Origin: Alphaproteobacteria bacterium
GTDB lineage: Bacteria > Pseudomonadota > Alphaproteobacteria > Bin95
Direction: 5' to 3'
NCBI GenBank assembly: GCA_963665325.3
Contig: CAXXWS020000004.1
Coordinates: forward strand, 128,001-192,000
DNA: 64,000 nucleotides
Of this stretch, positions 1 to 41,635 are shown in pieces. Position numbers and translations under genes: made by a program. Position 1 is the first letter of the stretch, and each line of letters opens with the position of its first letter. Below the pieces are notes generated by a model. It made no database searches. It had not been told where the DNA came from and was given only the letters and a program-made list of their open reading frames with translations.

Positions 1-1
1 G

Positions 2-1068: not shown

Positions 1069-1080
1069 AACTGTCGCACA

Positions 1081-1383
1081 TCAGGCACGCCGGAATTCGA
1101 GATAAGCGACAACTGCATCCTTGATGGAAGCCGTTCCAGTAACTGGATTCGCCCCGCGACGGAAGGAAATCCGGTGGCGCGGTTCCCCAGAAGGCGAGCA
1201 ACATAGAACTTCCACCAAAGGTTCAATGCGACCGTGGTCGAACAGTTCATCCAAATCGCCGTAATAGCGTTCAACCCGCCGGCACCTGCTGATTTTGTCT
1301 CGTATCGCCGGATCGCCGATCCGACGGGTCCTTTTCAGCCAAAGACGGAATGCGCTTTCCGTAGCCTCTTTCAACAGCTTCAA
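1081..1383 (-). CDS. Hypothetical protein (100 aa) in a lower-GC insert
   Basis: Protein-like composition (ISRCRRVERYYGDLDELF...GTASIKDAVVAYLEF); lies directly downstream of the co-oriented ORF 1398-1682. Confidence 0.55.
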   Translation of the reverse strand: MKLLKEATESAFRLWLKRTRRIGDPAIRDKISRCRRVERYYGDLDELFDHGRIEPLVEVLCCSPSGEPRHRISFRRGANPVTGTASIKDAVVAYLEFRRA

Positions 1384-1397
1384 TCCGGCCGGTGCTT

Positions 1398-1682
1398 TCA
1401 GTTGACCGACACGGGCCGCAGCGCCGCGCGGGCCAGTTCCTCCGGCGTTGGTAGCGTCCCGTCGGGTCGCGTCATGTCCATCGGCTCCTCCAGCTCGGCC
1501 TTGCTCGGCTGATACTCCGAGCGCGCCAGATTCACCGGGACCGGTTCCGGCATCTGCCGCTCCACAGGGTGGTCTCTTGGTAGCTTCGGCTTGTCTATCA
1601 TCGCTTCCTCCATTTTAGGGCCATAATGAGCGGACCGTCTCTGCCAAAATGGCACGGCTGGCGATGCGCTTGCATGCGCCAT
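1398..1682 (-). CDS. Small hypothetical protein (probable start near 1601, MIDKPK), likely mobile-element passenger
   Basis: GGAGG before MIDK; motif YQPSKAELEE...TPEELARAALRPV, which I recall from small ORFs next to IS1595-type elements (unverified). Confidence 0.5.
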   Translation of the reverse strand: MAHASASPAVPFWQRRSAHYGPKMEEAMIDKPKLPRDHPVERQMPEPVPVNLARSEYQPSKAELEEPMDMTRPDGTLPTPEELARAALRPVSVN

Positions 1683-1918
1683 GCTAGTCCTTTAATAGAA
1701 TGATTTCAATATGATAGTCTGGGAGGGTGTCAACAGCGATATCGAATGTGCCACAAAATGCCGAGCGTCTCTCGGCGGTGGGCGCGGTCTCTCCCGGCTG
1801 AACGACATAACCCTCGGTGCAACCCAGCAAGCCGACATTGTGGGCAATTGAAAGGGGATTATGTAGGAAAGTGCCGAAGGCCGCTTACCGTGGCCGATCG
1901 CAAACGAGGAGCACCGAT

Positions 1919-2275
1919 ATGCCCGTCAGCACCCGCTACGTCTTCATCGCAAGCATGGATGTGAACCCGGAGAAGGAGGATCTGTTCAACGAAGTCTACG
2001 ACACCGAGCATGTGCCCTACCTGCTGGAGGTGCCGGGTGTGATAGCGGTCACGCGCCTGAAGGCACTGGACTTCGAGGTGTCGATGGGCGGCGAGCTCAA
2101 GTCCGTTGCACGCGGCGAGACCCCGACATGGCACGCCATCTACGAGATCGAAAGCCCCGACGTCATGAAGAGCGCGGCGTGGGCGGAGGCGGTCGAGCGC
2201 GGGCGCTGGCCCGGCGAGGTGCGCCCGCACACCCGCAACCGGCGCCATTCGCTCCAGCGGGTGATGGGGGCGTAG
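1919..2275 (+). CDS. EthD-like / dimeric alpha-beta barrel protein
   Basis: GAGGAG RBS then ATG at 1919; FNEVYDTEHVPYLLEVPGV and HAIYEIESPDV patterns. Confidence 0.75.
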   Translation: MPVSTRYVFIASMDVNPEKEDLFNEVYDTEHVPYLLEVPGVIAVTRLKALDFEVSMGGELKSVARGETPTWHAIYEIESPDVMKSAAWAEAVERGRWPGEVRPHTRNRRHSLQRVMGA

Positions 2276-2281
2276 CAGCCC

Positions 2282-2522
2282 ATGTACAGGATCCTCGACA
2301 GGTTCCGTGCAGACTCAGCAAGTCGCGTCTCTCTCAGACATTACGGAATACGATTGCAGAGCCGTCACGTCTGCGATGACGAAATGCTCACGATGGCTGC
2401 GGGGACACGATGACGCTCCGGCTGCGCGGACCGAAGTGCTCGAACCTGCGGAGCTAAGGCAGGACATCGAGAAGCTGAGTAACCCTCCGAGGAGGACGCT
2501 GAACAGCGCCATAAGTAGCTGA
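2282..2522 (+). pseudogene. C-terminal remnant of a large AAA/SMC-like ATPase gene
   Basis: SVQTQ...DITEYDCRAVTSAMTKCSRWLRGHD...PAELRQDIEKL resembles the C-terminus of accessory AAA ATPases; there is no N-terminus. Confidence 0.4.
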
Positions 2523-2722
2523 TCGCGTTGGATCCCGAAGGGTCAGGACCCGGCGCTTAACAACAGCGGCAATCCGGTAACGCGGGCCGACGTGGCCCGG
2601 GCGGCCGACGAGACGATCGGGTAGCGGCGCATATCGGGCCTGCCGGCCCTGCCGCATGCTTGGCCGGCGCATGGCGGCAGGTTATATGTTTCTATAATGT
2701 TCCACACTCTGCGAGATTCCAC

Positions 2723-2977
2723 ATGCACAGCGAAGACAGCCACCCGGCGCCGAGAGAGGAGGTTCTCTTCGATATCGAGATGGCGCTCAGCAAGGAAGAG
2801 AAGCTGTGGCCGAAGCGGTTCAGGCCCGGCGATCACGATCGCCTCAAGCCCATGGCGCGGGCGATCCTCGAGCATCTCGAACACTGCGGTCTGCAGTTCT
2901 TCCGCAAACCGCCCGCGCCGAGACACAGCACGCCGGATCCCTGGGGCGGCGCCGGAACAGGGAAGGAAAGCGGCTGA
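2723..2977 (+). CDS. Hypothetical protein (84 aa)
   Basis: Coding-like codon usage; MARAILEHLEHCGLQFFRKPP pattern of small alphaproteobacterial proteins. Confidence 0.55.
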   Translation: MHSEDSHPAPREEVLFDIEMALSKEEKLWPKRFRPGDHDRLKPMARAILEHLEHCGLQFFRKPPAPRHSTPDPWGGAGTGKESG

Positions 2978-3000
2978 AGGGGGCGATTTCGCCCCTCCTG

Positions 3001-3051
3001 GAGCGAGCCGAGACCCAGGGCCTTGCCACCGGGATTGCCGAGGTGTCGCCG
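3001..3051 (+). repeat. Inverted partial copy of the cupin gene segment 3330-3380
   Basis: About 45/51 identity to the reverse complement of 3330-3380, including a 28-bp exact core gggccttgccaccgggattgccgaggtg. Confidence 0.85.
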
Positions 3052-3095
3052 CGGGCGTCCAGGCGTTTCGGGAACCGCACCATCGTCGGGGGAGG

Positions 3096-3572
3096 TCAGC
3101 GCTCGAAGTGGTAGGCGATCTCGTCGAAGCGGTCGCGGGGAAAGGCGAACACGAACACGAGCGGCTCCGCTCCGGTGCAGCGCAGCGCGTGCCGGACGTC
3201 AGGCGGGATGTAGATCGCACAGCCGGGACCCACCGGCTGCGACCGGTCCCCGATGTCCACCTCGCCCCGGCCGCTGACGATGAAATAGATCTCGGCAGGC
3301 TCATGGCGGTGACCCGTTAGCTCCGCGCCCGGCGCCACCTCGGCAATCCCGGTGGCAAGGCCCCGGGTCTCCGTCCGCTCGCCGGCGATCAGCACCTTCC
3401 AACGAATCCCCTCTCCCGCGGCAAGGCTGGCGTCTTCGCCGCCTTCCCACTCGAGATCGGCCTGGTCGACAATCGCAGGTCTCGGAGCGAACAACGGAAA
3501 ACCCGTCGACCCGCCGCCGGGCCAGCGGACCTCTGGATCCGGTTCGTCATGCATGATCGCGTAAGCGTCCAT
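3096..3572 (-). CDS. Cupin-domain protein, DddW-like (possible DMSP lyase)
   Basis: WEGG...RWKVLIAGERTETRGLATGIAEVAPG..L..HRHEPAEIY...G.G...YIPPDVRH...F..I.YHF; cupin metal ligands H,H,E,H; start uncertain. Confidence 0.75.
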   Translation of the reverse strand: MDAYAIMHDEPDPEVRWPGGGSTGFPLFAPRPAIVDQADLEWEGGEDASLAAGEGIRWKVLIAGERTETRGLATGIAEVAPGAELTGHRHEPAEIYFIVSGRGEVDIGDRSQPVGPGCAIYIPPDVRHALRCTGAEPLVFVFAFPRDRFDEIAYHFER

Positions 3573-3997
3573 GGGGATCAGGCCTCGGTTCGCGCCGGTG
3601 CGCCGTTGTCGGGACGAAGGGGCGGCACGACCCGGACATGACAGGCTGAAGGGCGACGGGAACCGACGAGCAGCGACATGACGATCCCATCTCCCGGAAC
3701 AGCCCGGCCGCCTGACATCGGCGCCGGTTTCCTGTGCCGCGAAGAGAATCCTCGCTGCCGGGGACCCACACTTGTCGCGATGCGACCGGCAAGAAACCCG
3801 AATGCGACCTTCAGACAAGAAAACGCCAACGGGAGCGGGAAGCCTACCTTGTCGGGCTATGCCGCCCGCCCTGTTTCGGTCAGGCGGATGTCTAACGTCA
3901 GCGCCTATAGGACAAGCTGAGGCATTTCGAAAGGCATTCGGTTCCCGTGCCATCGACTTCGCCCTGCTGACGGGAGCCGAGAGGCTTCTGTATGAGG

Positions 3998-4032
3998 TGT
4001 CAACGGCGGAGCAAAACTGTACCGGCGCGGCG
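3998..4032 (+). mobile_element. Orphan IS21-family terminal repeat
   Basis: TGTCAACGGCGGAGCAAAACTGTACCGG is nearly identical to the IS21 end at 42906. Confidence 0.7.
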
Positions 4033-4235
4033 TCTCGGACGTGCCTGGGCTCTGCTTCCCAGGGTTGCCGTGGCTATCGAATCGATCTTCTTCCTTCATT
4101 CGGGGCGTCTGGCACGATACCAGATACTTGGCGGAGCACATCGCCAGGCGACAGCAATCTCGGGCCGCTTGACCACGCGAACGCTCGAACGCATAGACGA
4201 CGGTCAGGCGCTATCAGACGGGATCGAAAACACCA

Positions 4236-4649
4236 ATGGCTCATGAGCGAATCCGAAAATTCAATACGGCGGACACCTACCCGGAGCAGAACCTCGACAA
4301 CGATCTCTGTCAGGCCGTTGTCGCTCGAGGGAGCATGGTCTTCCTGCGCGGCCAATGTCCGCAGAGTCTCGAGGACGGTGCGAGCATCGACAGCCATGAT
4401 CCGGTGGAGCAAACGCACCAGGTCATGCGGAATATAGGGCAGTTGATCGAGGAGGCCGGCGGCTCGATGGAACATCTGGTCAAGATCGTCGTCTATCTGA
4501 CCGACATTCGTCACCGCGAGCCGGTCTATCGGACCATGGGCCTGTACATCAAGGGTGTTTATCCGGTGTCCACCGGGCTCGTGGTCCAGGCGCTGGCGCG
4601 GCCCGAATGGCTTGTCGAAATCGACGCCACCGCCGTTATTCCGGACTGA
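4236..4649 (+). CDS. RidA/YjgF/UK114 family protein
   Basis: VFLRGQ, VKIVVYLTDIRHR, STGLVVQALARPEWLVEIDATAV. Confidence 0.93.
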   Translation: MAHERIRKFNTADTYPEQNLDNDLCQAVVARGSMVFLRGQCPQSLEDGASIDSHDPVEQTHQVMRNIGQLIEEAGGSMEHLVKIVVYLTDIRHREPVYRTMGLYIKGVYPVSTGLVVQALARPEWLVEIDATAVIPD

Positions 4650-26615: not shown

Positions 26616-29600
26616 TCACCAGCGCAGGGTCGCCCGTATCGCGGCCTGGTCGTCGACGTCGTTGTCGTTGGCGCTCACCCTGCGTTCTAACTCCGCGCCA
26701 AGTTGGAATGCGATGCGACCGCCTTCGACAAATCCGAACCCGTAACCAAGCCGATAATCGCGGTCGTACTCGGATTGCCCGTACTCGATCCCGAATTCGG
26801 CCCGGTTGATACTCAGGCGGTAGCCGAACCGGTAATCTCCCGCCTCTTCCGCGAGCCCGACACGGGCCCACGGCGTGCCGGTAGCCCGGCCGCCAAGAGC
26901 CGGCAGTCCGTACCCGATTTCGGCGTCCAAACGGCCGTCCGGGCTGTCGGCTCCGCCGAAATTGTCGAAGCTCCCGAGGGCCGCACCGGCACCTGGAGCG
27001 GTCTCCCACATGCTCTCGACACCGCGCTGTCCCGCGCCCCAAAACGGCGACACAATCAACGACAACCCGAGGTCCGAATAGGGTTGCGGGTCGTAGCGCA
27101 GCGATCCCGACACGCCATGGTCCCGGAACGTGTTCTCCTCGTGCATGAGCAAGCCGTGCCCGCTGATCTCCGCCGACAACCCCAGCACCGGATCGGTGAG
27201 GGCCAGTCCGCCGCCGAACTCAAGTCCGAAGCCTGTCTCGGCGTCGCCGCCATCGTGGCGCATGCCCACCTCGAAGGTCGGCCGCAACGAGGAGTCGGTT
27301 CCGAGGCTCGTCTCCCAGGACCCTTCCAGGGCGAGGCGCAAGCGCGTCACGTCGGCAGTCGTGGCCTCGAGGCGACCGCCCGAACCCTCCACAGCCTCCG
27401 AGCTGGTCTGCACGCCGAGCGCATCCGTCTTCAGGGCCAGGTCGAAGCTGTCACCCTCCTCTGACGAGAGCAGCGCTCCGCGCGCCCCGGCAGCCGCCAT
27501 CCGCAGCGCGAGCCCGGCTTCGAGCGGCTCATGGCCTTCGGGTGAAACCGTCAGGGTGCCGCTGCCGTAACCCACCGTCCCCCAAAGGGAGAAGCGCTTG
27601 CCGATGCCGTAGGCGGCGTAGGGATAAAGGCCCGTCACATCGGATTCGATGGCGCCGCCAGCATCGCCGTCGCGCCAGCTTCCTTCGCCGCGGCTCTGCG
27701 AAAGGGCCAGACCGGCGATCCAGCCGCCGGCCGCATAGTCCGCGCCGAGCGTCGCCGTCGAGACGTCGCCCTCGATAGCCATGCCCGCGTCCTGTCCCGA
27801 GAAGCTCGTGTAGGCGCCCCGGCCCCAGAATGACGCGAGACCTCCCCCTGACGTCTCCGAGCCGAATTGCAACGATGTCCCCGCCAGCACTTCCCTGCCC
27901 GTCATGCCGCGCGACAGTGTGTTGTCTCCGCCCAACGACGCGTCGTTCCCACGGTAGGCCTCGTCCAGCGAGCCACTCGTCGTGTTGTCGGCGCGGCCGC
28001 TCGCCATGCCCTCCAACAACACACCCAGAGCCTCGCCCATCTCTGCCCCACCCGTGGTGGGGTCAGCGCCGTCGATGCCGGGCGACGTTTCGCTGCCAAT
28101 CACGTGCCCGGCGATCGCGATCCGCGTCCCCTCTTCGCGCGTTGCGGTCAATCTCTCCTCCACGCCTTCGAGCACATGCTCTGCGGCGGTCCTGCCGAAG
28201 CGTGCGAGCCAGGCTCGCGGAATAGGCCCGGTGTTGACGATCGTGCCCGTGGCCTGCGCATCGGAGAGCTGGGCGCCAAAGGGGCGCGACAGCGTGAGCG
28301 TCAGTGTCTCCGAGCCCTCGTCATGGGTGTCGTTCAGAACCGGCACCCTGACCGTCTTCCGCGTCTGGCCGGCCTCGAAGTGCAGCGCACCCGACACCGC
28401 CTCGTAGTCCGCGCCCGCGGCGGCCGTGCCGTCAGACGTCGCATAGCGCACCGAGACGGCAGAGGTTTGCGCCGCGCCCAGCGTCACTCGGAAGGAAAGC
28501 GCCGCCCCCTCCGCCTCCTGGACCCGCGCATCGGCAACCGCGATGCCGGGCGGCGTCGCTACCGTCCCGTCCGGATCCTCGCGTGTGAGCTTGACGGCAA
28601 CCTCCTGCCCGTCCTGCCAGCCGGGATCTTCGACCGTCCAGACGAAAAAGTTCAGCCCCTCGACATCGTCCAACCGCAATTGCAGATCGTCGAGGTGCAG
28701 CGTCAATTGCCCGGGCTCGGGGGGAGCAGAAGCCGTCGCGAACGCCAGCTCCGAACTACCGGGGAAGAAATAGAGATTGCCGGCGCTGTAGCGAACCCCG
28801 TCTTCGGTCCAGCCGTCGGGCGACAGAGAGCCGCCCAGACCATCGTGGCGGCCGATGATGATGCCGCGGAAATCGGTTACCGTCAGCGTCGAGGTCCATA
28901 GCGTCTCGACCGCTGTCTCCGCTGTGGCCTGGTCGTTGTCGAACACCGCGACACTGGCGGAGGCCGCATCGGTGTCCACGATGTAACCGGATCCAGCCAC
29001 GAGTGACGCCGTCACCCGCCCGTCCGCTTCGGCCACCCCGTCGTCTTCAGTCGCCACGCCGAGCGTCGCCGTGCCCGAGCCCGCCACGAACGTCACCGTC
29101 GAGGCCGGCGTGCCCGCCACCGTCTCGCCGGTCTCGCTCACGCTTACCGCGACCGTGAGCGCATCCGTCGTGTCGCCCGTCCGACTCAGCGTGAAGGAGG
29201 CTGAAGTCCCCTCCGTCGCGGTGCTCGTCGCCGCCGCTATCGAGACCTCGGGCGGTGCCGCCGCAACCGTCGCCGTCGCGGCGCTGACCAGCATCTCCTC
29301 CGTGCCGCGGTCGTCGGTATAGGTGAGGCGTACCTTCACCGTCTTGCCCGCTTCCGCAGACGTCAGCGTGTAGGTGGACCCGGTTGCGTCCGCGATGTCC
29401 GTGTCTGACGTGTCGTCGTTCGCGAGCCACTGCCAGGCGAAGACCGCGTTCGTGAGCCCGTCGGCATCCGATACCTCAGAGGCCGAAGCCGTCACCGTCT
29501 CGCCCTCCTGCGCCACACCCGATATCGCCGGAAGACCCACAGGCGCCGTGTTGATCGGCGCAGGCGTGTCGTTGGTCACGGCCTGGGCCGAGAAGCCCGC

Positions 29601-30109
29601 CGCAGGATTGCCTGCCAGGTCGCGGAGCGGGTTCGCATTCGCACCCGTCGGGGCTGCATACCCGACCGTCACCGTCTCCCCGGCGACAACAGCCGAGGCC
29701 AGTGTCAGCGTTACCGCGCTGCCGCCCATGGCAACGCCCGAAACGTCGCGCGCCGCACCATCGACCGATACGGAGAAGGCGTTTGAGGCGGGCGCGGCGC
29801 TCTCGTCCAATGCCTCGCTGAAGGTCAGCGTGAGCGTGGCGCCATCTACGCGCGCATCCGACACGGTGGGCGCAATGTCGTCCATATCCGTAAGCTGCAC
29901 CGTCAGGTCCGCGAGGGTCTCGTTGGCGCCGTCGCTCACCTCAACGGTCACCTCGTAGGTGCCGTCCTGATCCGCGTCGTCCGGCGCCTCGAAATCCTTC
30001 GCCGCCGTGAAGGACAACTCGCCGGCCGCCGTCAGCGCGAACGCACTCGCGTCTACGCCCCCGACCGCCCCTTGCGGGATCGACCACACAAGATCCGCCG
30101 CCGCCGTGT
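26616..30109 (-). pseudogene. 3' part of the giant modular surface protein (cadherin, SwmB-like, Calx-beta repeats, autotransporter-type beta barrel)
   Basis: FEAPDDADQDG.YEVTV, LTLTFSEALD, V.YATSDGTA.AGADY, WLARFGRT, terminal ...RATLRW; fuses in frame with 34494-41635 once the element is removed. Confidence 0.88.
29130..30015. repeat. Intragenic module duplication (copy 1; copy 2 at about 34780-35660)
   Basis: Long near-identical DNA stretches encoding GANANPLRDLAGNPAA, SEVSDADGLTNAVFAWQW and GKTVKVRLTYTDDRGTEE. Confidence 0.85.
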
Positions 30110-30256
30110 TGAGCGGGCGCAGGCTTTCAGCGGCGATCAGGGGCTGATCGGCTCGGATTAATCGAGGTTTTGGATTGGGTGCCCCCCGGCGATCTTGCAA
30201 GAAGGCCGCCGGAGGGCTTGTCTCGGTGACAGTGACATCAACCTGAGACGGCCCCA

Positions 30257-30871
30257 ATGTCGCACAAGCTGTTCCGGCACTCCAATCTCTCCAACGCCCG
30301 GGTTTGGGATTTTCTGAAGCAGGTCGACGCGGCCGAGGCGGAGGCGTGCCGGGCGGCGGGTTGCCCGCGCTGCGGCGGCGCGCTTCACAGCGCGAGCTAC
30401 CCGCGCAAGCCGCACGGTCTGGCGGCGAATCTTCGGAACGACGTTCGGCGCTTCAGCCTGTGCTGTTCGGTGTGCCGACGCCGCGTGAAGCCGCCGTCGG
30501 TGCGTTTCTTCGGCAGGCGCTTTTACGTCGGGGCGCTGTTCCTTGTGGTGAGTGCGCTGGCTGTGGCCGGCGGCGCGCGGTTGCAGACGATCGCGCGGCG
30601 GTGCGGGGTTCCGGCCTCGACGCTGAAGCGCTGGCGGCGCTGGTGGCTGGAAGCCTTCCCGCTGACCCGGGAGTGGCAGGCGAGACGGGGCGAGCTGGCG
30701 GCGCCGCCCGAAGAGGCGCCGCTGCGCCGGCTGCTGCGCATCATGCGGGGCCGTGGCTTCCGCTCGCGGCTGCTGCGGAGCCTGGTCTGGCTGATGCCGT
30801 GGACCGGCTTTTGCGCGCTCGGCGCAGGTCCGGCTTCGCCCGCAGAAAGCGTTTCTATGATGCACGGATAG
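30257..30871 (+). CDS. Zn-finger + HTH accessory protein (DUF6431-like)
   Basis: CPRCGG...CCSVCRRR..PPSVRF; helix-turn-helix TIARRCGVPASTLKRWRRWW. Confidence 0.8.
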   Translation: MSHKLFRHSNLSNARVWDFLKQVDAAEAEACRAAGCPRCGGALHSASYPRKPHGLAANLRNDVRRFSLCCSVCRRRVKPPSVRFFGRRFYVGALFLVVSALAVAGGARLQTIARRCGVPASTLKRWRRWWLEAFPLTREWQARRGELAAPPEEAPLRRLLRIMRGRGFRSRLLRSLVWLMPWTGFCALGAGPASPAESVSMMHG

Positions 30872-30919
30872 GGCACCGCATCATCGGCACCTCCACGAAG
30901 CAGCGAGGGGGATGCCGGA

Positions 30920-32395
30920 ATGAACAGCAACGACGGGAGCGAGCGTCGCGACCGGTGGGCGCGGTTGCGCTTCGCGGTGGTCGGGCCGCTTCTGGCCTCG
31001 CCGCCGCCGGCGGGGCGGCTGCACGCCGAGCTTGAGCGGCTTGCCGAACGCGAGTGGGATCACCCGTCCGGCAAGGGCCGGGTGCGCTTCGCGGTGTCCA
31101 CGATCGAGCGCTGGTACTACCAGGCGCGGGCGGCGGACAACGATCCGGTGGGGGCGCTCAAGCGGCGCCCGCGCGCCGATGCCGGGCGCCCGCGCGCGAT
31201 GTCGCCGACGCTGATCGAGGCGCTGCACGAGCAGTACCGGGCGCATCCGTCGTGGTCGGCGCAGCTTCATCACGAGAATCTGGCCGCGCGGGTCGAGGCC
31301 GATCCCGAGCTCGGCCCGATACCGTCCTACGCGACGCTGACCCGGGCGATGCGGGCTCGCGGGCTGGTACGCAAGCGCCGGCGCAAGTGGCATGAGAGCG
31401 AGGCCAGGCCGGCGGTCGAAGCCCGCGAGGTATTGAGCTACGAGGTCTCGCGCTCTCACGCCCTGTGGCACGCCGACATGCACAGCGCCAAGCGTCGCGT
31501 GCTGACCGCCTCGGGCGAGTGGAAGACGCCGATCCTGCTCGGCTTCCTCGACGACCACTCGCGCCTCGGCTGCCACCTTCAGTGGTACCTCGCCGAGACC
31601 GCCGAGGTGTTCGTCCACGGCCTTTGCCAGGCCTTCATGAAGCGCGGTCTGCCGAGGTCCCTGCTGACCGACAACGGCGCGGCGATGACCGCGGGCGAGG
31701 TCGAGGAGGGGTTGCACCGGCTCGGCATCGCGGGGGTCACGACGCTCGCTTACAGCCCCCATCAGAACGGCAAGATCGAGTCGTTCTGGGGCACGGTCGA
31801 ATCGCGCCTGATGGCTCAGCTCGAAGGCGTCGACGCGCTTACCTTGAAGATGCTCAACGACGCCACCATCGCCTGGCTGGAGCAGGACTATCACCGCCGC
31901 AAGCACCGCGAGCTCGGCATGACGCCGCATCAACGCCTGGCCGGGAGCGTCGACGCGTCGAGATCCTGCCCCGGCTCGGCCGAGCTCAAGGCGGCCTTCC
32001 GCATCACCAGGAAGCGCACGCTCAGGCGCTCGGACGGCACCGTCTCGGTCGAGGGCATCCGCTACCAGGTGCCACAGCCGTGGCGCCACCTGCGCGAGGC
32101 CTGGATCCGTTACGCGCGCTGGAACCTCGCCAGCGTCGATCTGATCGACGGTCGAGGCGGCGAGCGCCTGTGCACGCTGTACCCCCTCGACAAGCGCGGC
32201 AACGCCGATGGCGTGCGCCGTCCCGCCGGCCCCGGCGGCAACGATGGCAATGGCGGCGCGGGGACGGGGGAACTTCCGCCGCTGCTCAAGGGCATGCTCG
32301 ACGCCCAGGCCGCAACCGGCCTGCCGCCGGCCTGGCTGCCCCATGACAAGACGCCCGGTCCGGGCGAGGACGAAGATCGGGGAGATGCGCCATGA
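30920..32395 (+). CDS. DDE integrase/transposase (rve core, Mu-type C-terminal domain)
   Basis: HTH STIERWYY; WHAD, LDDHSR, LTDNG, QNGKIE (D-D-E triad); DGTVSVEG..YQVP. Confidence 0.92.
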   Translation: MNSNDGSERRDRWARLRFAVVGPLLASPPPAGRLHAELERLAEREWDHPSGKGRVRFAVSTIERWYYQARAADNDPVGALKRRPRADAGRPRAMSPTLIEALHEQYRAHPSWSAQLHHENLAARVEADPELGPIPSYATLTRAMRARGLVRKRRRKWHESEARPAVEAREVLSYEVSRSHALWHADMHSAKRRVLTASGEWKTPILLGFLDDHSRLGCHLQWYLAETAEVFVHGLCQAFMKRGLPRSLLTDNGAAMTAGEVEEGLHRLGIAGVTTLAYSPHQNGKIESFWGTVESRLMAQLEGVDALTLKMLNDATIAWLEQDYHRRKHRELGMTPHQRLAGSVDASRSCPGSAELKAAFRITRKRTLRRSDGTVSVEGIRYQVPQPWRHLREAWIRYARWNLASVDLIDGRGGERLCTLYPLDKRGNADGVRRPAGPGGNDGNGGAGTGELPPLLKGMLDAQAATGLPPAWLPHDKTPGPGEDEDRGDAP

Positions 32396-33225
32396 ACCGG
32401 GAACTGCTCACCTTCTACGGGCTCAAGTGGAACCCCTTCGCCACCGACCTGCCGGTCGACAGTCTCATGGCGACGCCTGCCGTCGACAGCTTCTGCCTCA
32501 GGATCGAGCGCCACCTGGTGCGCCAGGGCGGCTTCGCCTTGATCGCCGGCGAGCCCGGCGCCGGAAAGAGTGTGGCGTTGCGCCTGCTCGCCGACCGTCT
32601 CGGCCGCTGCGAGGGGCTCAGCATCGCCGCCATCACCCATCCCTCCTCCCGGCTGTCCGACTTCTACCGCGAGATCGGCGAGATGTTCGGCGTCGACCTG
32701 ATGTACAACAACCGCTGGGCCAGCTTCAAAAGCCTGCGCGAGCGCTGGCTCGCCCATGTCGACGATACCCGCATGCGCCCCGTCGTGCTCGTCGACGAGG
32801 CCCAGGAGCTGCTGCCCTCGGTGTTCTCCGAGATCCGCCTGCTGGCTTCGACCGACTTCGACTCGCGCGCCATCCTCTCGGTCGTCCTCGCCGGCGACAC
32901 GCGCCTGCTCGACAAGCTCCGCCAGCCCGATCTGCAGCCCATCGCCTCGCGCATCCGCCAGCGCCTGGTCATGACCAAGGCCGAGGCCGGCGACCTCGCG
33001 GCCCTGCTCGACCATCTGATCGAGCAGGCCGGCAATCCCGGCCTCATGACCGCGGGCCTCAAGGACACCCTGGTCGCCCATGCCGACGGCAACCCGCGGG
33101 CGCTCACCGTCATGGCCGACGCCCTGCTCGCCGCCGCCGCCGAGAAGGAGCGCGAGGTCCTCGACGAGAAGCTCTTCATCGAGACCCTGGGCGAACCCGC
33201 CAAGCCGAGGAGGGCGCGGCGGTGA
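32392..33225 (+). CDS. ExeA/TniB-like AAA+ ATPase (transposition helper)
   Basis: FYGL..NPF, GEPGAGKS, VDEAQ, LAG, SRI, GNPR; ATGA overlap with the transposase. Confidence 0.9.
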   Translation: MNRELLTFYGLKWNPFATDLPVDSLMATPAVDSFCLRIERHLVRQGGFALIAGEPGAGKSVALRLLADRLGRCEGLSIAAITHPSSRLSDFYREIGEMFGVDLMYNNRWASFKSLRERWLAHVDDTRMRPVVLVDEAQELLPSVFSEIRLLASTDFDSRAILSVVLAGDTRLLDKLRQPDLQPIASRIRQRLVMTKAEAGDLAALLDHLIEQAGNPGLMTAGLKDTLVAHADGNPRALTVMADALLAAAAEKEREVLDEKLFIETLGEPAKPRRARR

Positions 33226-34220
33226 AGGGCTTCCCGACACGGGCGCCGGCGGAGCTCGAAGAGCGCCCCCAGGCGCGCCGCTGGATGGTCGAGGCGTTGT
33301 GGTCCGAGCAGGGCGTCGGCATCGTCGGCGGCGAGCCCAAGTGCGGCAAATCCTTCCTCGCACTCGACATCGCCGTCGCGGTCGCCGCCGGCGTCCCCTG
33401 CCTGCGCCACTTCCGTCCCGCCGCAAGCGGCCCCGTGCTGCTGTTCGCCGCCGAGGACGCCGGCCATATCGTGCGCGCACGCCTCCAGGGCATCGCAAAG
33501 GCGGCAGGCACCGCGTTCGAGACCCTCGACATCGCCGTCATCGACGTGCCCACGCTGCGTCTCGACCATCGCGCCGATCGCCAGCGCCTGGTCGAGACGG
33601 TGGAGCGCGTCTCACCCCGCCTCGTCGTCCTCGACCCCCTCGTGCGCCTGCACGGCGTCGACGAAAATACCGTCGCCGAGGTCGCCCCCATGCTGGGCTT
33701 CCTGCGCGACATACAGCGCCGCTTCGAAACCGCCGTCCTCCTCGTCCATCACGCACGAAAGAGCGGCGGCTCCCGGCCCGGGCAGGCGCTGCGCGGCAGC
33801 AGCGAACTTCACGCCTGGGGCGATTCGAATCTGTACCTGCGCCGGCGAGACCGCCAGATCCTCATGACCGTCGAGCATCGCGACGCCCCTGGCCTCGAAG
33901 ACCTCGAGATCGAACTCGCCGACGACGACGAGCGCCCCGCCCTGCGGTTGCGCGAGACGCCGGAAGACCAGGCGCCGGAGCCGGATACCCCCGAACGGCG
34001 CATCCTGCAGGCCCTCGCCGACGCCGACGCGCCGCTCTCCCAGCGCCGGATCCGCGAGCGCGCGGCAACCCGGCCCGCAACCGTCGCCGAGGCGCTGCAC
34101 AGGCTCGTCCGCGAAGGACGCGTCGAGCGCGCATCCGAAGGCGGATACCGCCTCGCCGCCCTCAACGGCAACGACCGCAGGGACACGTTACCGAAAACCG
34201 TTACCGCCTCGAACCCCTAG
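33222..34220 (+). CDS. AAA_25 / RepA-like SF4-type helicase with C-terminal winged HTH (332 aa)
   Basis: GTGA overlap; WMVEALW, GEPKCGKS, AAED, VVLDP, LLVHHARK, LRGSS; C-terminal LSQRRIRE...VAEALHRLVREG.V. Confidence 0.85.
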   Translation: MKGFPTRAPAELEERPQARRWMVEALWSEQGVGIVGGEPKCGKSFLALDIAVAVAAGVPCLRHFRPAASGPVLLFAAEDAGHIVRARLQGIAKAAGTAFETLDIAVIDVPTLRLDHRADRQRLVETVERVSPRLVVLDPLVRLHGVDENTVAEVAPMLGFLRDIQRRFETAVLLVHHARKSGGSRPGQALRGSSELHAWGDSNLYLRRRDRQILMTVEHRDAPGLEDLEIELADDDERPALRLRETPEDQAPEPDTPERRILQALADADAPLSQRRIRERAATRPATVAEALHRLVREGRVERASEGGYRLAALNGNDRRDTLPKTVTASNP

Positions 34221-34247
34221 GGAGAGAGGGTAACGGTAACGGGTAAC
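34186..34247. repeat. Iteron-like GTTACC/GGTAAC repeats around a CCCTAGGG palindrome
   Basis: CGTTACC at 34186 and 34199; CCCTAGGG at 34215-34222; GGTAAC at 34229, 34235 and 34242. Confidence 0.8.
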
Positions 34248-34493
34248 ACCGCTCCCATTGTCACACTGCGTAAAGCGGCCGGCCCGTGGCCGGAAGCTTG
34301 CTTACGGCCATGGATGCACTCCGTCGGAGGGACGGCGGCGGGTCACCCGAAGGGCCGGAGCGCAGCGCAGGAGCCGCGAAGCGGCTTGACGCGCCGACGG
34401 CCGTCCGACACCCCCGCCGTCACGCCCGGCCCGACGCCTGAAAACCATCGAACAACGTGACCATCCCGCCATCAGATACCGAGAGCACACTCA

Positions 34494-37400
34494 GTGTCGT
34501 CGTCCGTCGCTGCCAGCGTCACGACCGTGGTCTCGTTCTCCGCAACCTCGACCGGCGAGACCGTCGTCACGACCGGTGCTGCATCGTCGTCCTCCACCAC
34601 AACCTCGGACGACGATGCGGTTCCATCCACGCTGTAGCCGGTCCCGGCCGCGACCGTCGTGGTGATCGTGCTCGCATCCTCCACGACCTCGTCGTCCTCG
34701 GTCGCGACACTCAGGTCCGCCGTGCTCGAGCCGGCGTCGAACGTCGCCGTCGCCGGTGCGGTGCCCGCCACCGTCGCACCGGTCTCGCTCACGCTCACCG
34801 CGACCGTGAGCGCATCCGTCGTGTCGCCCGTCCGGCTCAGCGTGAAGGAGGCTGAAGTCCCCTCCGTCACGGTGCTCGTCGCCGCCGCGATCGAGACTTC
34901 GGGAGGCGCCGCCGCAACCGCCGCCGTCGCGGCGCTGACCAGCGACTCCTCCGTGCCACGGTCGTCGGTATAGGTGAGGCGTACCTTCACCGTCTTGCCC
35001 GCGTCCGCAGACGTCAGCGTGTAGGTGGACCCGGTCGCGTCCGCGATGTCGGCATCCACCGTCCCGTCGTTCGCGATCCACTGCCAGGCGAACACCGCAT
35101 TCGTGAGCCCGTCGGCATCCGATACCTCGGAGGCCGAAGCCGTCAGCGTCTCGCCCTCCTGCGCCACACCCGATATCTTCGGCAGGCCTTCTGGCGCCGT
35201 GTTGGCCAGCGTGTCGTTGGTCACGGCCTGGTCCGAGAAGTCCGCCGCAGGATTGCCTGCCAGGTCGCGGAGCGGGTTCGCATTCGCACCCGTCGGGCCT
35301 GCGTACCCGACCGTCACCGTCTCCGCGGCCACAACGGCCGAGGCCAACGTCAGCGTCACCGCGCTGCCGCTCATGGAAACGTTCGAGACGTCCCGTCCCG
35401 CACCGTCCACCGTGGCGGAGAACGCGCTCGAGGCCGGCGGGGCGCTCTCGTCCAGCGCCTCGCTGAAGGAAAGCGTAAGCAGGTCGCCATCCACGCTCGC
35501 GCTCGACAGTTCCGGCGCGATCTCCTCCACGTCTGCGAGGCGGACGATGAGGGCCTTGTCCGTCCAATTGTATCCGTCCACGACGCGCACCGTGACTTCG
35601 TAATCGCCGTCCTGATCCGCATCGTCCGGCGCCTCGTAGTCCTTCGCTGCCGTGAAGGAGAGTACGCCTGCCGTCGTCAAGGTGAAGCTGGCGGCATCCG
35701 TTCCGCCCATGCTCCCCCACGGAATCGCCCAAACGAATCTCGGCTCCGCCGCGTCCTCGTCCGTTGCCGTCAGCGTTGCGACTACGCCCTGGTTCTCCGC
35801 GACAACGACGGGCGAGACCGTGGTGATCACCGGCGGCGCGTCGTCGTCTTGTACCTCAACCTCAGCGGATGTCGCGTTTGCATCCAGGCTGTAGTCGGCG
35901 CCGGCCGCAACCGCCGCGGTGATGGTGCTCGCGTCCTCCACGACCTCGTCATCCTTCGTCGCGACGCTGAGCTCAGCCGTGGCCGATCCGGCGGCGAAGG
36001 TCGCCGTCTCCGGTGCCGTGCCGGACACCATCGCGCCGGTCTCGCTCATGCTCACATCCACCGTCAGTGCGGCCGCCGTATCGCCGGTCCGGCTTAGCGT
36101 GAAGGCGGCGGGCTCACCCTCCGTCACCGGGCTCGAAGCGGGCGCAATGGATATCTCGGGGAGCGCCGGGCCCGGCACGGTGGCCGAGACCGCCTCCGAA
36201 AGAGTTCGGCCTTCCCTCGTGCACACCGCGCCTCGTTCGCCGCACGCCCGCGCGGGCAGCGTGACGGCGATGTCGCCGTCCGTGTCCGGCTCGAGCGTGA
36301 GGCGCCAGCCGATGTTGGAGCCCTTCTCCAGACGCTGCGCCCGTGTCACCGCCCCGCCGCTGACCTCGAATGCCCGGTCGCGCAGCTTCCGATAGCCGAT
36401 TCGGAACTCTTCGCTGAAATGCAGCTCGAACTGGAACGCGGTCAAGCCGTCGTGGCTCTCCGGAACGTTCTCGAAGCGCGCCGTGAGCCAGTCGCTCGCC
36501 GCCACCTCGACCGCAGCAGAGCCGATCGCGGTTCCGTCATGAGAGACCGCCGCCTCGATGGTCTCCGCCGGCTCCTGATCGGCGTCGTCGGTAGCCGTTA
36601 CCGTGGCCGTCACCGTGCTCGCGCCCGCCGCGAGCGTGAGCGCGTAGGGAGAGGCGAGCGCCTGCCCGCCGCCGTCGGCGACCCCGTAGTCCGCCGCGAC
36701 CGCTGTGCTGGCCGCGAAGTCGAGCGCGATCGTCTGGTCCGCCGCGAAGGTCAGGCCGTTCGCAATCGCCACCGTCAGCGTCGAGGCCTCCCCCTCCTCG
36801 ATCTGCGCCGGGCTCGCCGAGACGGTGAAGGTCGCCGCGTCGTTGTCGTTCACCGCCACCTCGGCGGACGAGGCGCTCGCATCGACGGTGTAGCCGGTCC
36901 CGGCCGTAACGCTCGCCGTGATCGTGCTTGCCGCCTCGACGACCGTGTCGTCCTCGGTCGCGACGCTCAGTTCCGTCGTGCTCGAGCCGGCGGCGAAGGT
37001 CGCGGTCGCAGGCGCGCTGCCCGCCACCATCGCGCCGGTCTCGCTCACGCTCACGTCCACGGTCAGTGCAGCCGCCATGTCGCCCGCGCGCGTCAAGGTG
37101 AAGGCGGCGGCCTCACCCTCCGTCACCGGGCTCGAAGCGGGCGCAATGGATATCTCGGACGTCCCTATGACGGCATCCGTCGTGATTTCCAAAGGCAGGC
37201 TTCTGGATTTCACGAGTGAATAGCCCGAGTGCGACGACGAGGGCAGGGAGGGAAGGGTGCCGATATCGACGGTCACTGCCCCTGTTTCTTCCGCCAGGCG
37301 GGCGACGCCGACCGGGGCGCTTTCCGTGCTGCCTGCGGGGATGACGACGGTGCTGGAGCCGTCGCTGAGCTGCCCGTTGGTGACGACGATCGGCAGCTCG

Positions 37401-40400
37401 ATGCGGAAGGGCGCGCCGCTGTCCGCCGTTGCCTTGAAGGTGCCGCCTCCTGCCGCTTCGAGTCCGATGTCAACGGGCAGTGGACCGACTGTGTTTCCAG
37501 TCAAATTGAGGTATTCAAGCGAAGTCAGTCCCGAGAATATCCCGTCCGGCAAGCTGCTCAGTCGATTGTTGCTCAAATTAAGGGCTTTTAGGGAGTTCAG
37601 CCCGGAAAACACATCTGCTTCCAGCACCGTTAGCTTGTTGGAACGCAGCAACAAGTATTCCAACTTGGAAAGACCGTAGAACAAATTCCGGGGTATGGTC
37701 GTCAAATTTCGATTCGAAGATATAGAAAGAGATTTCAGTCCCGAGAGGCCGGAAAAATCGTCCGTTCTCAGTACGCTCACTCTGACGCTTCCGCTGCCCG
37801 CTATCTCGAGCCGCCCGATCATTGCCAGCTCGGTGGCTGTAATGTCCGAGCAATCCTTCAGAAGCCTTGCAGCAATCGCATCGCGCACTATAGGGGTTCG
37901 ATCGCAAACGCCACCGATTGCATCGTTCGGGACCGACCTGTTCACGAAGCCCGCGGCACCATTGCTCGCCAGATCGCGAAGTTTCGAATCTCCGTTTGCC
38001 GTGGGCACCGTGTACGAGACGTAGACCGGTTCGCTTGCCGCCACCGCTGCGCTCAATTGCAACTCCACCGTGGCGCCCGATAGCGATACGGTCGTGACGG
38101 AGCGCGTTGCACCCGCCACTCTGACCGCATAAGCGCTTGTGGGCGGGATCGAGCCCGTGTCCAACGCTTCGTCGTAGATCAAGGTGAGCGCCGATCCGGA
38201 GACGGAGACGCTTTCGAGCTCTGGCGGCGTCGAATCTTCATCCTGAAGCGTAACGGACGCGGTCGTTACAGTGCCTGATTCCACGCCGTCAGGCAGTCTG
38301 CCGAGACCGAGAACGATGTGTTCTCCCTGCTCCGCCTCGCTGTCCGCAGACGCCGTGACCGTCACGGTTTGCGACAGCGGACCGCCACTTGTGAACGTTA
38401 CGCTGCTGGAGGATGTGTATTCCAGCGGGGATGCGCCACCCAGAGGCGTTGCAATTATGGGGATGGTGACCGTGCGCTCAGGATCATGGTTCAAGCGAAC
38501 CGTGACCGATGCCGTGCCCCCTTCTGTCACGGCATAGACCGTCTTTGCGAACTCGACTGTGACCGGCCGCGGTTGGCGCACCAGAGTCGCCGTAAAACTG
38601 TCTTGCGTGATTCCATCCTCTGCCGTTACCGAGACGGTTATGACGTTCTCACCAACCGATGGCTCGAACTCGTAGATTCGACAGTCGTGATCCGGTTGGC
38701 CACAGTAAGAGCCAAGGAGATTGTCCGCTCCAACCGCAGGCATGGAAGGCGAAATCGTGACGGTTGCTTCTGAATTGCTTGGCTCAACGGCCAAGTGCAC
38801 CAAACTGGTCGCCCAAGAAACGGTCGCTTCATAGTTCCCCGAGCTTAGCATGCTGGCGCCCGTCACGCCCGAATTGGGACTACGACCGAACATGACCCTC
38901 TTCGTACCCGTGTCCGTGGAGAGCGGCACCGATGTGTTTCGCACTGCGAAGTCGGCGAAAGACTCTGCCGGGTTTTGTGACAAGTCGCGAATTCGAGCCG
39001 CGCCCTGAGCCGTTGGAACCGTGTAGCCCAGCGACACGACCTCGCCCTCCACGACCGGCGAAGCCAGCGTAAGTTCGACCGCGCTTCCGGTTATGACCAC
39101 GTCGTCCACGGCACGATCGTTGCTGGCGACCGTTACCGAGAACGTTTCGGCTGCCGGTACGGACGCCGTATCCAGCGCCTCGTTCCATGTCAGCACGAGA
39201 GCGGCGCTGTCCGCGGTGGCTCGGAGCAATTCTGGAGCCGTTGTGTCCGTCGCCGATGGCGTCGCCGTGACTTCCGTCGAGGCGCCGTCCCCGTTCTGGT
39301 TGTAGGGCACGATTCGAACCGAGTGCTCCGTACCGTTCGTCAGCCCGGCAATCGTATGGGCATTCCTCTCGGCGACGTCGACGACCACGGCCTGCCGCGA
39401 GGTGTCGTATTGCTGCGAACCCGATTTCCACTGGATCCTGTAGCCTTCGATGGGTGAGCCGCCATCGCTGGCCGGGGCGCTCCAGGAGACCGCGAGCTTT
39501 CCGCTCCCTGCAGCGTTGGCCGCAACGCTCCCTGGTGCGCCTGGCACACAGCCACCGTCACGCCACGGATTGCGCGCAACGCCGTCTTCGAACGCCGATT
39601 CCGCCGCCTTTGAATTGCTGCAGTACCCGCCGAACGAGTTCCTGAGTTGATACACAACAATGCCTCTTTCGTGGCTGTCCTCCATACTCTTCACGTCAGC
39701 CCAAAGCTTTTCCAGGTCCGGGCCATCTGCAATAGCGCCATAGGTCGTGGAGAACCATGCGGGCATCGTGCCCGAAATCGCGCTGCGCATAACCGCGACG
39801 GCTTCTGCGGTTGTTCTCGAATTCCAGTCGGTGCAGGCATCCCAATAGGTAGGGTCGATATCCGGTAAAATGGACAGAAGAAATACGTCGGCGTAAAGCT
39901 CCGATATTCTGCAGTTATTGCCGGCCACGACCGGCAAGCTCTCGAGATACAGGCGAAAAGCGGACAAGGCAGCAATGTCGCCAGATAAGTCGCTATTCTT
40001 GTCGTAGTAGTGCGCCATTTCGTGAATCAGGATTCTCGCTAATTGTGCAGCCCCCGAATCAACTATGCTCTCTTGAACCACCGTACCGGTCACGCGGCAT
40101 GTGTGCAGTCCATCCGCTCGTGGGCTGCACGAAGATTGCACGGCCGCCGATCCGGGGGCTGCCTCGACAATGTTGAATACCTTCCCATTCCGCTTCATGT
40201 GCTCCCAGGAAGTACGTAGCCAAGGCGATGAATTGCCGTACACGGCAACGACCTGATCTTCTATGAAGCTAAGAAGGTAAGAATCGAGCGAAATCGGTGT
40301 CCCCGTGATTTCATTCGTAGGCTCACTGTCTCCCAACAAATTGTAAGCAATAACCCTCATCCGGTACTCGGTACCGTTCTGCAAGCCTGTAATCTTGTAC

Positions 40401-41635
40401 GCCCACCGAAAAGTGATACCGATTGGAACCATCTCCGTGACGATCGCTTGGTCGGACGACTCCCAGGAGTTCGGATCCGACGTCCACTGCACCTTGTAGC
40501 CGACAACAGGCGATCCACCGTCCCGTGCCGGTGGCCACCACCGGATACTGAGTTCGCCATCGTTTCGGCTGGACAGGTAATTCGAGGCAGGGGCCTCGGG
40601 CGGTGCCTGGGAGCGCGTCAGAGACAACGTATACGTCTTGCGATCGATGGTGTTCTCCGCCGTGACGACGATGTCCAGGGTGTTTTGTCCCGCGCCGAGA
40701 GGGACCTGATGGCCGGACGCATTGGTATCGGCGTCTACAGAGGGCGAGAAAGCGACTGTGGCACCGGAATCGCTCGGCGTCGGCGTGACAGTCGCCGCCG
40801 TCACGGAATACGGCACGACAGCGCGGTACTGCTCGGTGGCGGATGAGAATGCCGGCGTCAGCGTCGCTCCGGACACGGTCAGCGCACTCAACGTCGCATC
40901 GGATGATGCCGTTCCGGTATTCACGACGACTTGGTTGCTCAGAGCCGGCGCTTGGTTGCCCAACCAGTCCTGCAGGGGCTGGGCCGTGGCGCCGGTCGGT
41001 ACCGCATAGCTGAGCGTGACGGTATCGCTTGCGGAGGTAGCGCTCGACAGCGTCAGCGTGACCTCGGTCCCTTGGATGTTCACGCCGGAAACCGCTGCGG
41101 TGCTTCCCCCGGCGACGACGGTAAAGACACTGGTGGACGGTACAGAATTCGCATCCAACAATTCATCAAACGTGAGACGGAGGGTGGCGCCAACGACGTT
41201 GGCACTAACGAGCAGAGGCTGTTCCCCTGAACTTGATGTTGCAAAAATTTGTGAAGAATAGCCAGATGTTCTCGCGAATCTGGCGCCCACACGGACACAA
41301 TACTCCTGTCCGTTCTGAAGACCAGTAATCGTGTAGGATGTCTGCGTGGTTGCCACGTCGGTCCATGTCGCACCTGCGTAATTCCATCCGCAAAACTTAC
41401 CGCTCGGAGTGGGCACGTTCAGACGTGGAATGGTATAGTTTACGACATACTTGACGAGCGTCATATCTTGTTCGGCCGGTGGCTCCCAAGTCACACCCAG
41501 TATTCCATCTCCCGGCGTGACGCGGACATTGTTGGGCTCAAGTTCCGAGGCAGACAGTGTTCCGGATGTCTGCAGAACAATAACTGCCACAAGCACCGCA
41601 AGAGCCACGCGGCAGGCGCGAGCTATTAACGTCAT
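34494..41635 (-). pseudogene. 5' part of the giant modular surface protein (signal peptide, FN3 x3, SwmB-like, cadherin-like, HEXXH domain, LRR, Calx-beta-like); now ends at a premature stop at 34472 inside the element
   Basis: Hydrophobic N-terminus; W.PP..DGGSP..GY.VQW; DATLSALTVSG.TLTPAFS; HEMAH; LxxLxLxxNxL repeats after a CDRTPIVRDAI cap. Confidence 0.88.

Follow-up and report, generated by a model that had tools for sequence, protein, structure and literature searches.

The DNA analysed here (the window) is a stretch of 64,000 nt from Alphaproteobacteria bacterium (Bin95), corresponding to positions 128,001–192,000 of the forward strand of contig CAXXWS020000004.1 in assembly GCA_963665325.3. 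It contains a transposon of 4384 bp (window positions 30110–34493) with TGAG...CTCA ends, which carries four co-oriented open reading frames (ORFs) on the forward strand, here called O1 to O4, followed by an inverted array of short repeats and a 155-nt non-coding structured element (Table 1). Two of the gene junctions are overlaps, ATGA at 32392–32395 (O2/O3) and GTGA at 33222–33225 (O3/O4). An earlier, sequence-only reading of this DNA had described this arrangement of genes and overlaps, and its domain calls—HTH_23; HTH_32 with rve; AAA_22; AAA_25 with a winged helix—proved right. We propose that the element is a transposon of the Tn6049 family equipped with a selected module, centred on the helicase-like protein O4, that acts in replication of the transposition intermediate, a statement to which, taken as a whole, we assign a probability of about 0.5.

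Table 1. Features of the transposon and its insertion site (positions within the window).
Feature	Position	Strand	Basis
O1, 204 aa, CxxC...CCxxC cysteines and helix-turn-helix (HTH)	30257..30871	+	HTH_23 at residues 101-132, E 3.4e-6
O2, 491-aa DDE transposase, MuA-like	30920..32395	+	Pfam HTH_32 and rve
O3, 277-aa AAA_22 ATPase ('gspA' of Tn6049), MuB-like	32392..33225	+	AAA_22, E 5e-20
O4, 332 aa, RepA-like RecA-fold ATPase (~20-245) and C-terminal winged helix (~255-312)	33222..34220	+	AAA_25, E 4.6e-36
Inverted tandem-hexamer array over O4 stop: two GTTACC-type, loop, three GGTAAC-type	34186..34247	+	30/32 distinct O4 3' regions
BLK, 155-nt non-coding structured element, hairpin and three-way junction	34264..34418	+	RNAalifold, 46 pairs
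Left end: terminal TGAGCG.. inverted repeat and two subterminal repeats (~30123-30133, ~30156-30167)	30110..30256	+	Identity edge in 24 copies
Right end: two subterminal repeats and terminal ..CTCA	34419..34493	+	Identity edge among copies
Left copy of target duplication, GTGT	30106..30109	.	Direct repeat of 34494-34497
Right copy of target duplication, GTGT	34494..34497	.	Direct repeat of 30106-30109
Disrupted host gene, giant, repeat-rich, surface/adhesin-like, C-terminal autotransporter-like part	26616..41635	-	Read from translation only

The first three genes make up the transposition core. O1 is a Zn-ribbon/HTH accessory protein, in which the cysteines C36, C39, C69, C70 and C73 are invariant in comparison with the first ORFs of Tn6049-type elements. 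O2 matches a transposase family in PHROG (phrog_310, E 2.4e-40), and its residues D186, D251 and E287, invariant in our alignment, probably form a DD(35)E triad. O3 matches phrog_296, 'DNA transposition protein' (E 1.4e-23), and the sole match of its profile in the PDB is MuB (8xvb, E 2.3e-4). At the level of sequence, O2 and O3 thus appear to resemble a MuA/MuB-like transposition pair. O2 scored 123.9 bits against the NCBIfam model for IS481 (NF033577, cut-off 224) and 45 bits against that for IS21 (NF033546, cut-off 160), reaching neither threshold; O3 had no IstB_IS21 match in Pfam, and none of the four proteins matched a Pfam or NCBIfam model for TniB, TniQ, TnsA or resolvase.

A search of plasmid-encoded proteins with O2 returned 21 near-full-length matches at ~50% identity, nearly all from Cupriavidus and Paraburkholderia. 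The matching unit on plasmid pMOL30 of C. metallidurans CH34, and likewise on one from P. phytofirmans, consists of a 181–189-aa ORF, a DDE transposase, an overlapping 277–285-aa 'AAA family ATPase' and a 71-aa ORF, the first three of which are collinear with O1 (39–42% identity), O2 (49–51%) and O3 (52–53%). The transposon concerned, Tn6049, was reportedly first described in 2009. According to two papers, it measures 3.5 kb and is present in CH34 in 12 copies, every one with the ATPase gene gspA (PMC2864759), and on the P. aeruginosa plasmid pHS87a it has 12-bp imperfect TG..CA inverted repeats and a 4-bp direct repeat (PMC4739549); the available portions of the papers on Tn6049, including these two, contain nothing on a helicase or on mechanism.

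We are close to certain that the element in the window belongs to this family. The sequence-only reading had held that it fits no classical insertion sequence (IS) family, a claim that is not borne out, given the match of core genes, gene order, ends and short target duplication to Tn6049. With O1–O3 collinear with Tn6049 genes at 39–53% identity, the core is a known one rather than a new class, Tn6049 being named yet unstudied. Nevertheless, at 4384 bp and with an O4 unrelated to the 71-aa ORF, the element is a variant of Tn6049 rather than Tn6049 itself, and it falls within a large subfamily, undescribed in the full-text literature searched, in which a portable module replaces the small fourth ORF. 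The idea that the 71-aa ORF is a shortened O4 was dropped after BLASTP came back empty and Pfam gave no match.

O4 lies at the centre of that module. In Pfam, its C-terminal part is a winged helix-turn-helix (wHTH) domain of the IclR/GntR/MarR type. A profile of O4 matches the RSF1010 RepA helicase (1g8y) at E 3.7e-12, collinearly over residues 32–196 against 32–202, and the two share the blocks GKS (Walker A), AED, VLD (Walker B), HH..K and RGSS. The residues K43, E78/D79, D138, H176/H177 and R191 of O4 are invariant in nine sequences and align to these RepA blocks; we take them to be, respectively or in combination, the Walker A and B residues, the catalytic Glu, the His sensor and the arginine finger. 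RepA was the only PDB match to the ATPase part of the profile, the other 16 at E ≤ 1 being small wHTH proteins, while in PHROG it is phage primase-helicases that are matched, in their helicase parts. A Foldseek search with a structural model of O4 (predicted local distance difference test, pLDDT, 69) returned the RecA-fold proteins Rad51/DMC1, RepA (target-normalised template-modelling score 0.67), RadA, KaiC and DnaB. From these similarities we infer that O4 is a helicase.

The end of O4 coincides with the second component of the module. In 30 of 32 distinct O4 3' regions, drawn from a first family of elements (F1), a second family (F2, described below) and a deep lineage, the stop codon lies inside an inverted hexamer array or at most ~60 nt upstream of one; the two regions lacking an array are a truncated locus (L158) and a non-transposon one (L166). 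Each arm holds two or three tandem hexamers, and the arms co-vary, as GTTACC, GTTCCC, GGTTCCC or GTTTCC. In all 32 rows, the hexamer type tracks the two residues that follow the conserved Arg at the start of the wHTH recognition helix: P-A or T-A with GTTACC, N-A or N-S with GTTCCC, H or N and then K or T with GGTTCCC, and A-T with GTTTCC. On a tree of the ATPase domain only, both traits need ten changes, and the contrasts across supported branches all agree but are few (3/3, 2/2 and 3/3; p 0.25–0.5). It is a well-motivated suggestion that the palindrome would serve as the site where the winged helix binds and O4 loads.

Beyond the palindrome lies a gene with DUF3991 and Toprim domains, the 155-nt element, or neither. 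The Toprim gene (289 aa; domains from Pfam) is the fifth gene in sister elements, for example at L106:7103-7972 and L100:7102-7971, and was found in lineages L094, L098-L100, L102, L104-L108, L129, L134, L135, L155, L156, L164, L167, L168 and L018-L021. The 155-nt element follows the palindrome in the window, in several F1 lineages and at every F2 locus that could be judged. Lineages of the two types are interspersed on the O4 tree.

The 155-nt element is structured: across 13 sequences 96.6% of alignment cells pair, against 24–46% in slid controls, with nine pairs changed on both sides. For 40 distinct sequences, whose alignment was fitted to the model, the figures are 96.1% and 24–41%; 17 pairs are compensated, the long stem accounting for 12, and none of 500 shuffles reached the observed values. 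Because G-U/G-T pairs are confined to the sense strand, the structure is strand-specific. Rfam 15 gave no match at E ≤ 1 to any part of the transposon when positions 30000–34600 of the window were searched on both strands.

Within its own genome the 155-nt element occurs only inside the transposon (24 copies and one fragment). It does not accompany O4 universally, with two of 92 loci searched matching the model. Its exact core was matched 76 times in other genomes, 50 times behind O4 and 26 times with no O4 within 400 nt upstream, and on the strength of these 26 we rejected the view that it is merely the 3' untranslated region of the O4 mRNA. Twelve of the 26, scattered over three alphaproteobacterial genomes, are miniature inverted-repeat transposable elements (MITEs) of ~235 bp that end in TGTCCTGG...GGACA and are flanked by 5-bp duplications; the 155-nt element makes up their whole interior, as it does in two MITE families altogether. 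Five others adjoin genes for a RecD2-like helicase, a single-stranded DNA-binding protein (SSB) and a DUF7146 protein, a set typical of regions that handle transferred or single-stranded DNA. Genome G006 has one more copy, close to an integrase and within another kind of unit that is flanked by inverted repeats. Since it has been kept by unrelated transposons and by MITEs, and lies beside helicase, SSB and primase-like genes, the 155-nt element may act in cis as a signal when the DNA is single-stranded, or may function as RNA in a related way.

As to the layout of these O4-less loci, at L306:19-4037 (and also in L280, L294, L248 and L274) the 155-nt element lies between the RecD2-like helicase gene and the SSB gene, with the DUF7146 gene next. 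The MITEs are found around position 2000 of loci L242, L243, L250, L251, L255, L257, L271, L284, L291, L298, L310 and L313.

Whether O4 is a part of the transposon or a passenger was examined from both directions. A scan with a DDE alignment, taking one genome per species, yielded 527 relatives; among the best 80 of these 527, O4 stands directly behind O3 in 12, is lacking in 50, and cannot be judged in 18 that are too short. On the DDE tree the rows with O4 make up two clades, one of 10 rows (support 100) and one of three (support 88), and every member has the gene. The Tn6049 type without the helicase occupies a clade of 62 rows (support 91), and no O4 was seen in a further, separate clade of four. 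The sequence-only reading had allowed that the helicase gene might turn out to be a sporadic passenger that most homologues lack: it is indeed lacking from most DDE relatives overall, given the 50 of the best 80 without it, and is universal inside its own clades.

A reverse scan with O4 gave 478 relatives, the best 80 of which included 76 new loci. A DDE/AAA_22 pair lies directly upstream in 75 of these 76: the set O1-O2-O3 in 46, a different DDE/AAA_22 pair in 24 and a part set on five short contigs, where the pair is partly visible, with neither in the remaining one. A scan with O4 from the deep clade added 60 loci, mostly from Planctomycetota and Acidobacteriota, with all four genes in 42, a part set in 12 (O3 with or without O2 in 11, O1 only in one) and fragments without any in six; O4 is directly behind a DDE/AAA_22 pair in 53 of the 60. 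The gene is universal in two deep clades spanning several phyla. At E ≤ 1e-20, relatives of O4 make up at least 7,813 protein clusters, for which the best name is 'AAA family ATPase', and a search of 72,556 plasmids at the same threshold found no close relative. Its ratio of nonsynonymous to synonymous substitution rates (dN/dS) is 0.22–0.44, alongside 0.25–0.45 for O2 and 0.15–0.53 for O3, and its start overlaps the O3 stop, coupling it translationally to O3. In view of the transposase-like dN/dS, the clade-wide presence, the linkage to a DDE/AAA_22 pair and the lack of plasmid relatives, we consider it likely that selection maintains the O4 module as a functional part of the transposon, and that it is not a chance passenger.

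The module has also moved between transposons. The second family, F2, comprises multi-copy elements 4.38 kb long that end in TGTTGT...ACAACA and are flanked by a 5-bp duplication, represented by 24 loci with O4 (for example L128:2973-7352, L143:2957-7342 and L148:2826-7389). Its genes encode a 214-aa Cys/His-rich ORF without a Pfam match, a DDE transposase (HTH_32, rve, Mu-transpos_C), an AAA_22 ATPase and O4. In comparison with the element in the window, the transposases are 28–29% identical and the ATPases 25–30%, against 73–78% for O4. A counterpart relationship between the 214-aa ORF and O1 was discarded (hhalign probability 0.3%, from shallow alignments; nothing in BLASTP), and the F2 ATPase reached 20.8 bits against TniB, below the cut-off of 22.4. 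The F2 sequences of O4 form one clade (99/97) nested inside F1 diversity, which indicates that F2 acquired O4 in a single capture. Given that the module persists with a very different transposase, O4 more likely serves a general function, DNA unwinding for example, than one that depends on a tailored contact between proteins.

The transposon, which the sequence-only reading had taken to be active, is a mobile element of recent and high activity: there are 24 copies in its genome (5.58 Mb, five contigs), 21 of them identical. Of the 23 full-length copies (query 1–4384), 21 are at 100% and two at 99.98% with a 1-bp indel; the 24th is split at element position 4108–4111 by a 2070-bp IS. Similarity ends at the same bases in every copy. 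In the disrupted host gene, excision of the element and one GTGT fuses the ORFs at 34472–41635 and 26616–30257 into a minus-strand ORF of 3641 aa, and the frame is restored by removing 1, 4 or 7 bp beyond the element and by no other length. The exact boundaries claimed earlier stand. So do the weak terminal inverted repeats, which agree at ~8 of the first 12 bases in the window copy. In relatives the inverted repeats reach up to 26 perfect bases, and two subterminal repeats are conserved at each end. The right-end repeats, of the ..T(C/T)GATGG type and ~15–24 and ~40–50 bases from the tip, are among those conserved.

The 4-bp target-site duplication (TSD) fared less well: GTGT flanks the window copy as claimed, but the length is not fixed and varies from 4 to 6 bp among copies. 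Among the 23 full-length copies the TSD measures 4 bp in eight, 5 bp in nine and 6 bp in two and is missing from four, and it is 5 bp at the split copy. Two of the four copies without a TSD have a 5-mer with one mismatch. At the other two (C2:25283-29666 and C4:930514-934897) the flanks have been swapped reciprocally, so that cross-pairing them gives duplications of 5 bp and 4 bp; this implies either that two replicons recombined through the homologous repeat or that the assembly was joined there. No common target motif emerged across the 24 insertion sites, and the TSD sequences are unrelated. In all, the element accounts for ~105 kb of identical repeats in its own genome, for gene disruptions and for one inter-replicon exchange.

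Several further observations concern these insertions. In the disrupted gene for the putative surface protein, the repeats to the left and right of the transposon nearly duplicate one another. A 120-kb stretch (C1:1982775-2101890) holds seven of the 24 copies, and there the local GC skew is unusually high (0.08–0.15); this cluster could reflect local hopping or an insertion-tolerant island. Copy orientation could not be related to GC skew, as the contig skew curves are irregular and yield no usable replication direction. The 2070-bp IS has CCCAAGTTTAAC terminal repeats and is present in the genome in 12 identical copies and one rearranged copy, one of the twelve (C1:2290873-2292942) being the one that splits the 24th transposon copy. 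Fragments at C1:446362-446548 and C1:452255-452358 are 79–86% identical to the right part of the transposon, including part of the 155-nt element, and are remnants of an older related element.

How the parts might work together can be sketched as follows. O2 would nick the TG..CA ends and join them to the target, with O3 most likely holding or presenting the target DNA, at staggered cuts 4–6 bp apart. O4 would load at the hexamer palindrome through its winged helix and unwind the DNA of the element, and priming would be provided by the Toprim protein or, in the element described here, by the 155-nt signal through a host enzyme. A strand-transfer or copy-out intermediate could then be replicated without waiting for the host restart machinery, favouring copy-and-paste spread. 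The matches of O4 to RepA (1g8y) and to primase-helicases, the Toprim gene downstream, the presence of the 155-nt element beside SSB and RecD2 genes and as the interior of MITEs, and the match of hexamer type to wHTH residues are what give the module its replicative flavour; that it acts in replication of a transposition intermediate is a tentative proposal, which we rate at somewhat under an even chance. A bolder version, which we think rather unlikely, would make these elements self-priming DDE transposons, with an origin-like palindrome, an initiator-helicase and either a Toprim primase or a structured signal that recruits host primase or RNA polymerase, so that the intermediate or an excised circle is self-replicated; the 155-nt element would then represent a new class of portable priming signal, common to unrelated transposons, to MITEs and to regions of conjugative elements with genes for SSB and RecD2-like helicases.

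A number of results weigh against a replicative module. The O4 module is not required for Tn6049-type transposition, seeing that helicase-less relatives multiply too, with 12 copies in CH34 (PMC2864759), and that 50 of the best 80 (of 527) DDE relatives do without O4. The primase-like gene is present only in some elements, with none in the genome studied here, and both this gene and the 155-nt element are missing from six F1 lineages. In Foldseek the recombinases Rad51/DMC1 rank level with RepA, and the O4 model behind that ranking is only moderate (pLDDT 69). The structure statistics for the 40-sequence set come from an alignment that had been fitted to the model, and the correlation between hexamers and wHTH residues could stem from plain linkage, the two features being adjacent, within 200 bp.

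Three other explanations of O4 were weighed. In the first, O4 would be a DNA-binding ATPase for target choice, immunity or regulation that steers the MuA/MuB-like machinery, comparable to TnsD, TnsE or TniQ, with the palindrome as its operator. Such a role would suit the fusion of a wHTH domain of sequence-specific type to an ATPase and the position of the palindrome over the end of the O4 gene itself, where autoregulatory sites often lie; elements with AAA+ regulators, such as Tn7 and Tn5053, often add a target selector, and the seven-copy cluster in 120 kb of contig C1 might be read in the same way. We nonetheless regard it as improbable: the 24 sites share no sequence and their TSDs are unrelated, Pfam shows no TniQ/TnsD similarity, the neighbours (the Toprim gene, and the 155-nt element beside SSB and RecD2 genes) are of a replication type, and the pairing of the module with two transposase/ATPase sets only 25–29% identical argues against a tailored contact.

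We see as little prospect for the second, in which the module is selfish or beneficial cargo in a variable right end, without a role in transposition—a remnant plasmid or satellite replication gene, for instance, or an anti-defence function. The right end is indeed a mosaic (the 71-aa ORF; O4 alone; O4 with the Toprim gene; O4 with the 155-nt element), lineage L013 shows by its dN of 0.044 for O2 and 0.242 for O4 that recombination is frequent, and relatives without the helicase are successful. Mere cargo, however, is hard to square with a DDE/AAA_22 pair directly ahead of O4 in 75 of 76 close relatives (from the best 80 of 478) and at 53 of 60 deep-lineage loci, with its having been kept in two or more ancient clades and across a capture from one family by another, with translational coupling to O3, with purifying selection like that on the transposase, or with the lack of plasmid relatives at E ≤ 1e-20. 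Nor does PADLOC report a defence match for O1, O2 or O4; its 24-bit match for O3 is to a P-loop, the Toprim protein reached 29 bits, and we dropped a role as a defence system. The third explanation, a RadA/Rad51-like recombination or branch-migration motor that repairs or resolves the intermediate or the donor gap, seems less probable still, for although RAD51 paralogues, DMC1 and the RadA helicase are among the best Foldseek matches (E ~1e-9) and copies of the element recombine (the C2/C4 flank swap), RSF1010 RepA is the sole PDB sequence match of the ATPase part, the PHROG matches are to helicase parts of primase-helicases, the Toprim partnership fits priming better, and flank exchange between identical 4.4-kb repeats needs host RecA only.

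We return to a selected module with a part in replication as the reading that we prefer, and consider what it would add. In the full-text literature (ISfinder and TnCentral being outside our scope) we found no described DDE/AAA+ transposon with such a helicase, and the helicase module, the palindrome, the alternation of Toprim gene and 155-nt element and the transfer between families have likewise not been described there. What the comparisons bring to light is a large, multi-phylum, Mu-like subfamily that encodes a helicase-type motor, its own palindrome and, often, a primase-like protein. To our knowledge, phage Mu is the one case among replicative or copy-out DDE transposons in which the acquisition of a replication fork has been worked out in detail. 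Should the module prove to start replication, no bacterial DDE element before these would have been known to carry replication-initiation functions, and the question can be tested with an element of only 4.4 kb. The spread of the 155-nt element points to a portable cis-acting signal, and annotators gain a name for thousands of genes now labelled 'AAA family ATPase'.

Among the closest known systems is Tn6049, agreeing in its first three genes, their order and the DDE/ATPase overlap, in TG..CA ends with a short imperfect inverted repeat, in a short target duplication and in being multi-copy. It differs in size (3.5 kb against 4384 bp), in a fourth ORF of 71 aa that has neither a Pfam match nor BLASTP similarity to O4, and in lacking both the hexamer palindrome module and the 155-nt element, whose model found no match in the 68 O4-less loci searched. 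The transposase of Tn6049 bears the NCBI label 'IS481 family', and IS481 is also the best NCBIfam model for O2; IS481 elements, however, have a single gene and measure ~1–1.3 kb, against four genes and 4.4 kb here, and O2 falls below the cut-off. IS21 likewise pairs a DDE transposase with an ATPase and makes duplications of 4–8 bp, but its ATPase is of the IstB type (DnaC-like), unlike the AAA_22 protein O3, and O2 is below the IS21 cut-off as well.

With Mu (MuA/MuB), Tn552, Tn5053 and the Tn7 group, the element has in common a DDE transposase with N-terminal HTH domains and an ATP-dependent protein that acts on target DNA. Mu also shares TG..CA ends and duplications of ~5 bp, and its proteins are those matched in PHROG and the PDB; the element, though, is without Mu-type phage genes and encodes a helicase-type protein of its own, whereas Mu replication depends on host restart proteins. 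It departs from Tn5053/Tn402 and Tn7-like elements in that O3 is below the TniB model and TniQ, TnsA and resolvase are absent. RSF1010 RepA agrees with O4 in its collinear ATPase core, motif blocks and fold, but is only ~19% identical, does without the C-terminal winged helix that O4 adds, and serves a plasmid replicon together with RepB and RepC rather than a transposon. Casposons use Cas1, Polintons a retroviral-type integrase with PolB, and Helitrons and IS91 an HUH Rep-helicase; none of these, as far as we know, is a MuA/MuB-type bacterial DDE element with a helicase resembling superfamily 4 (SF4), and what they share with the transposon described here is the concept only, that of a transposon bringing its own replication proteins.

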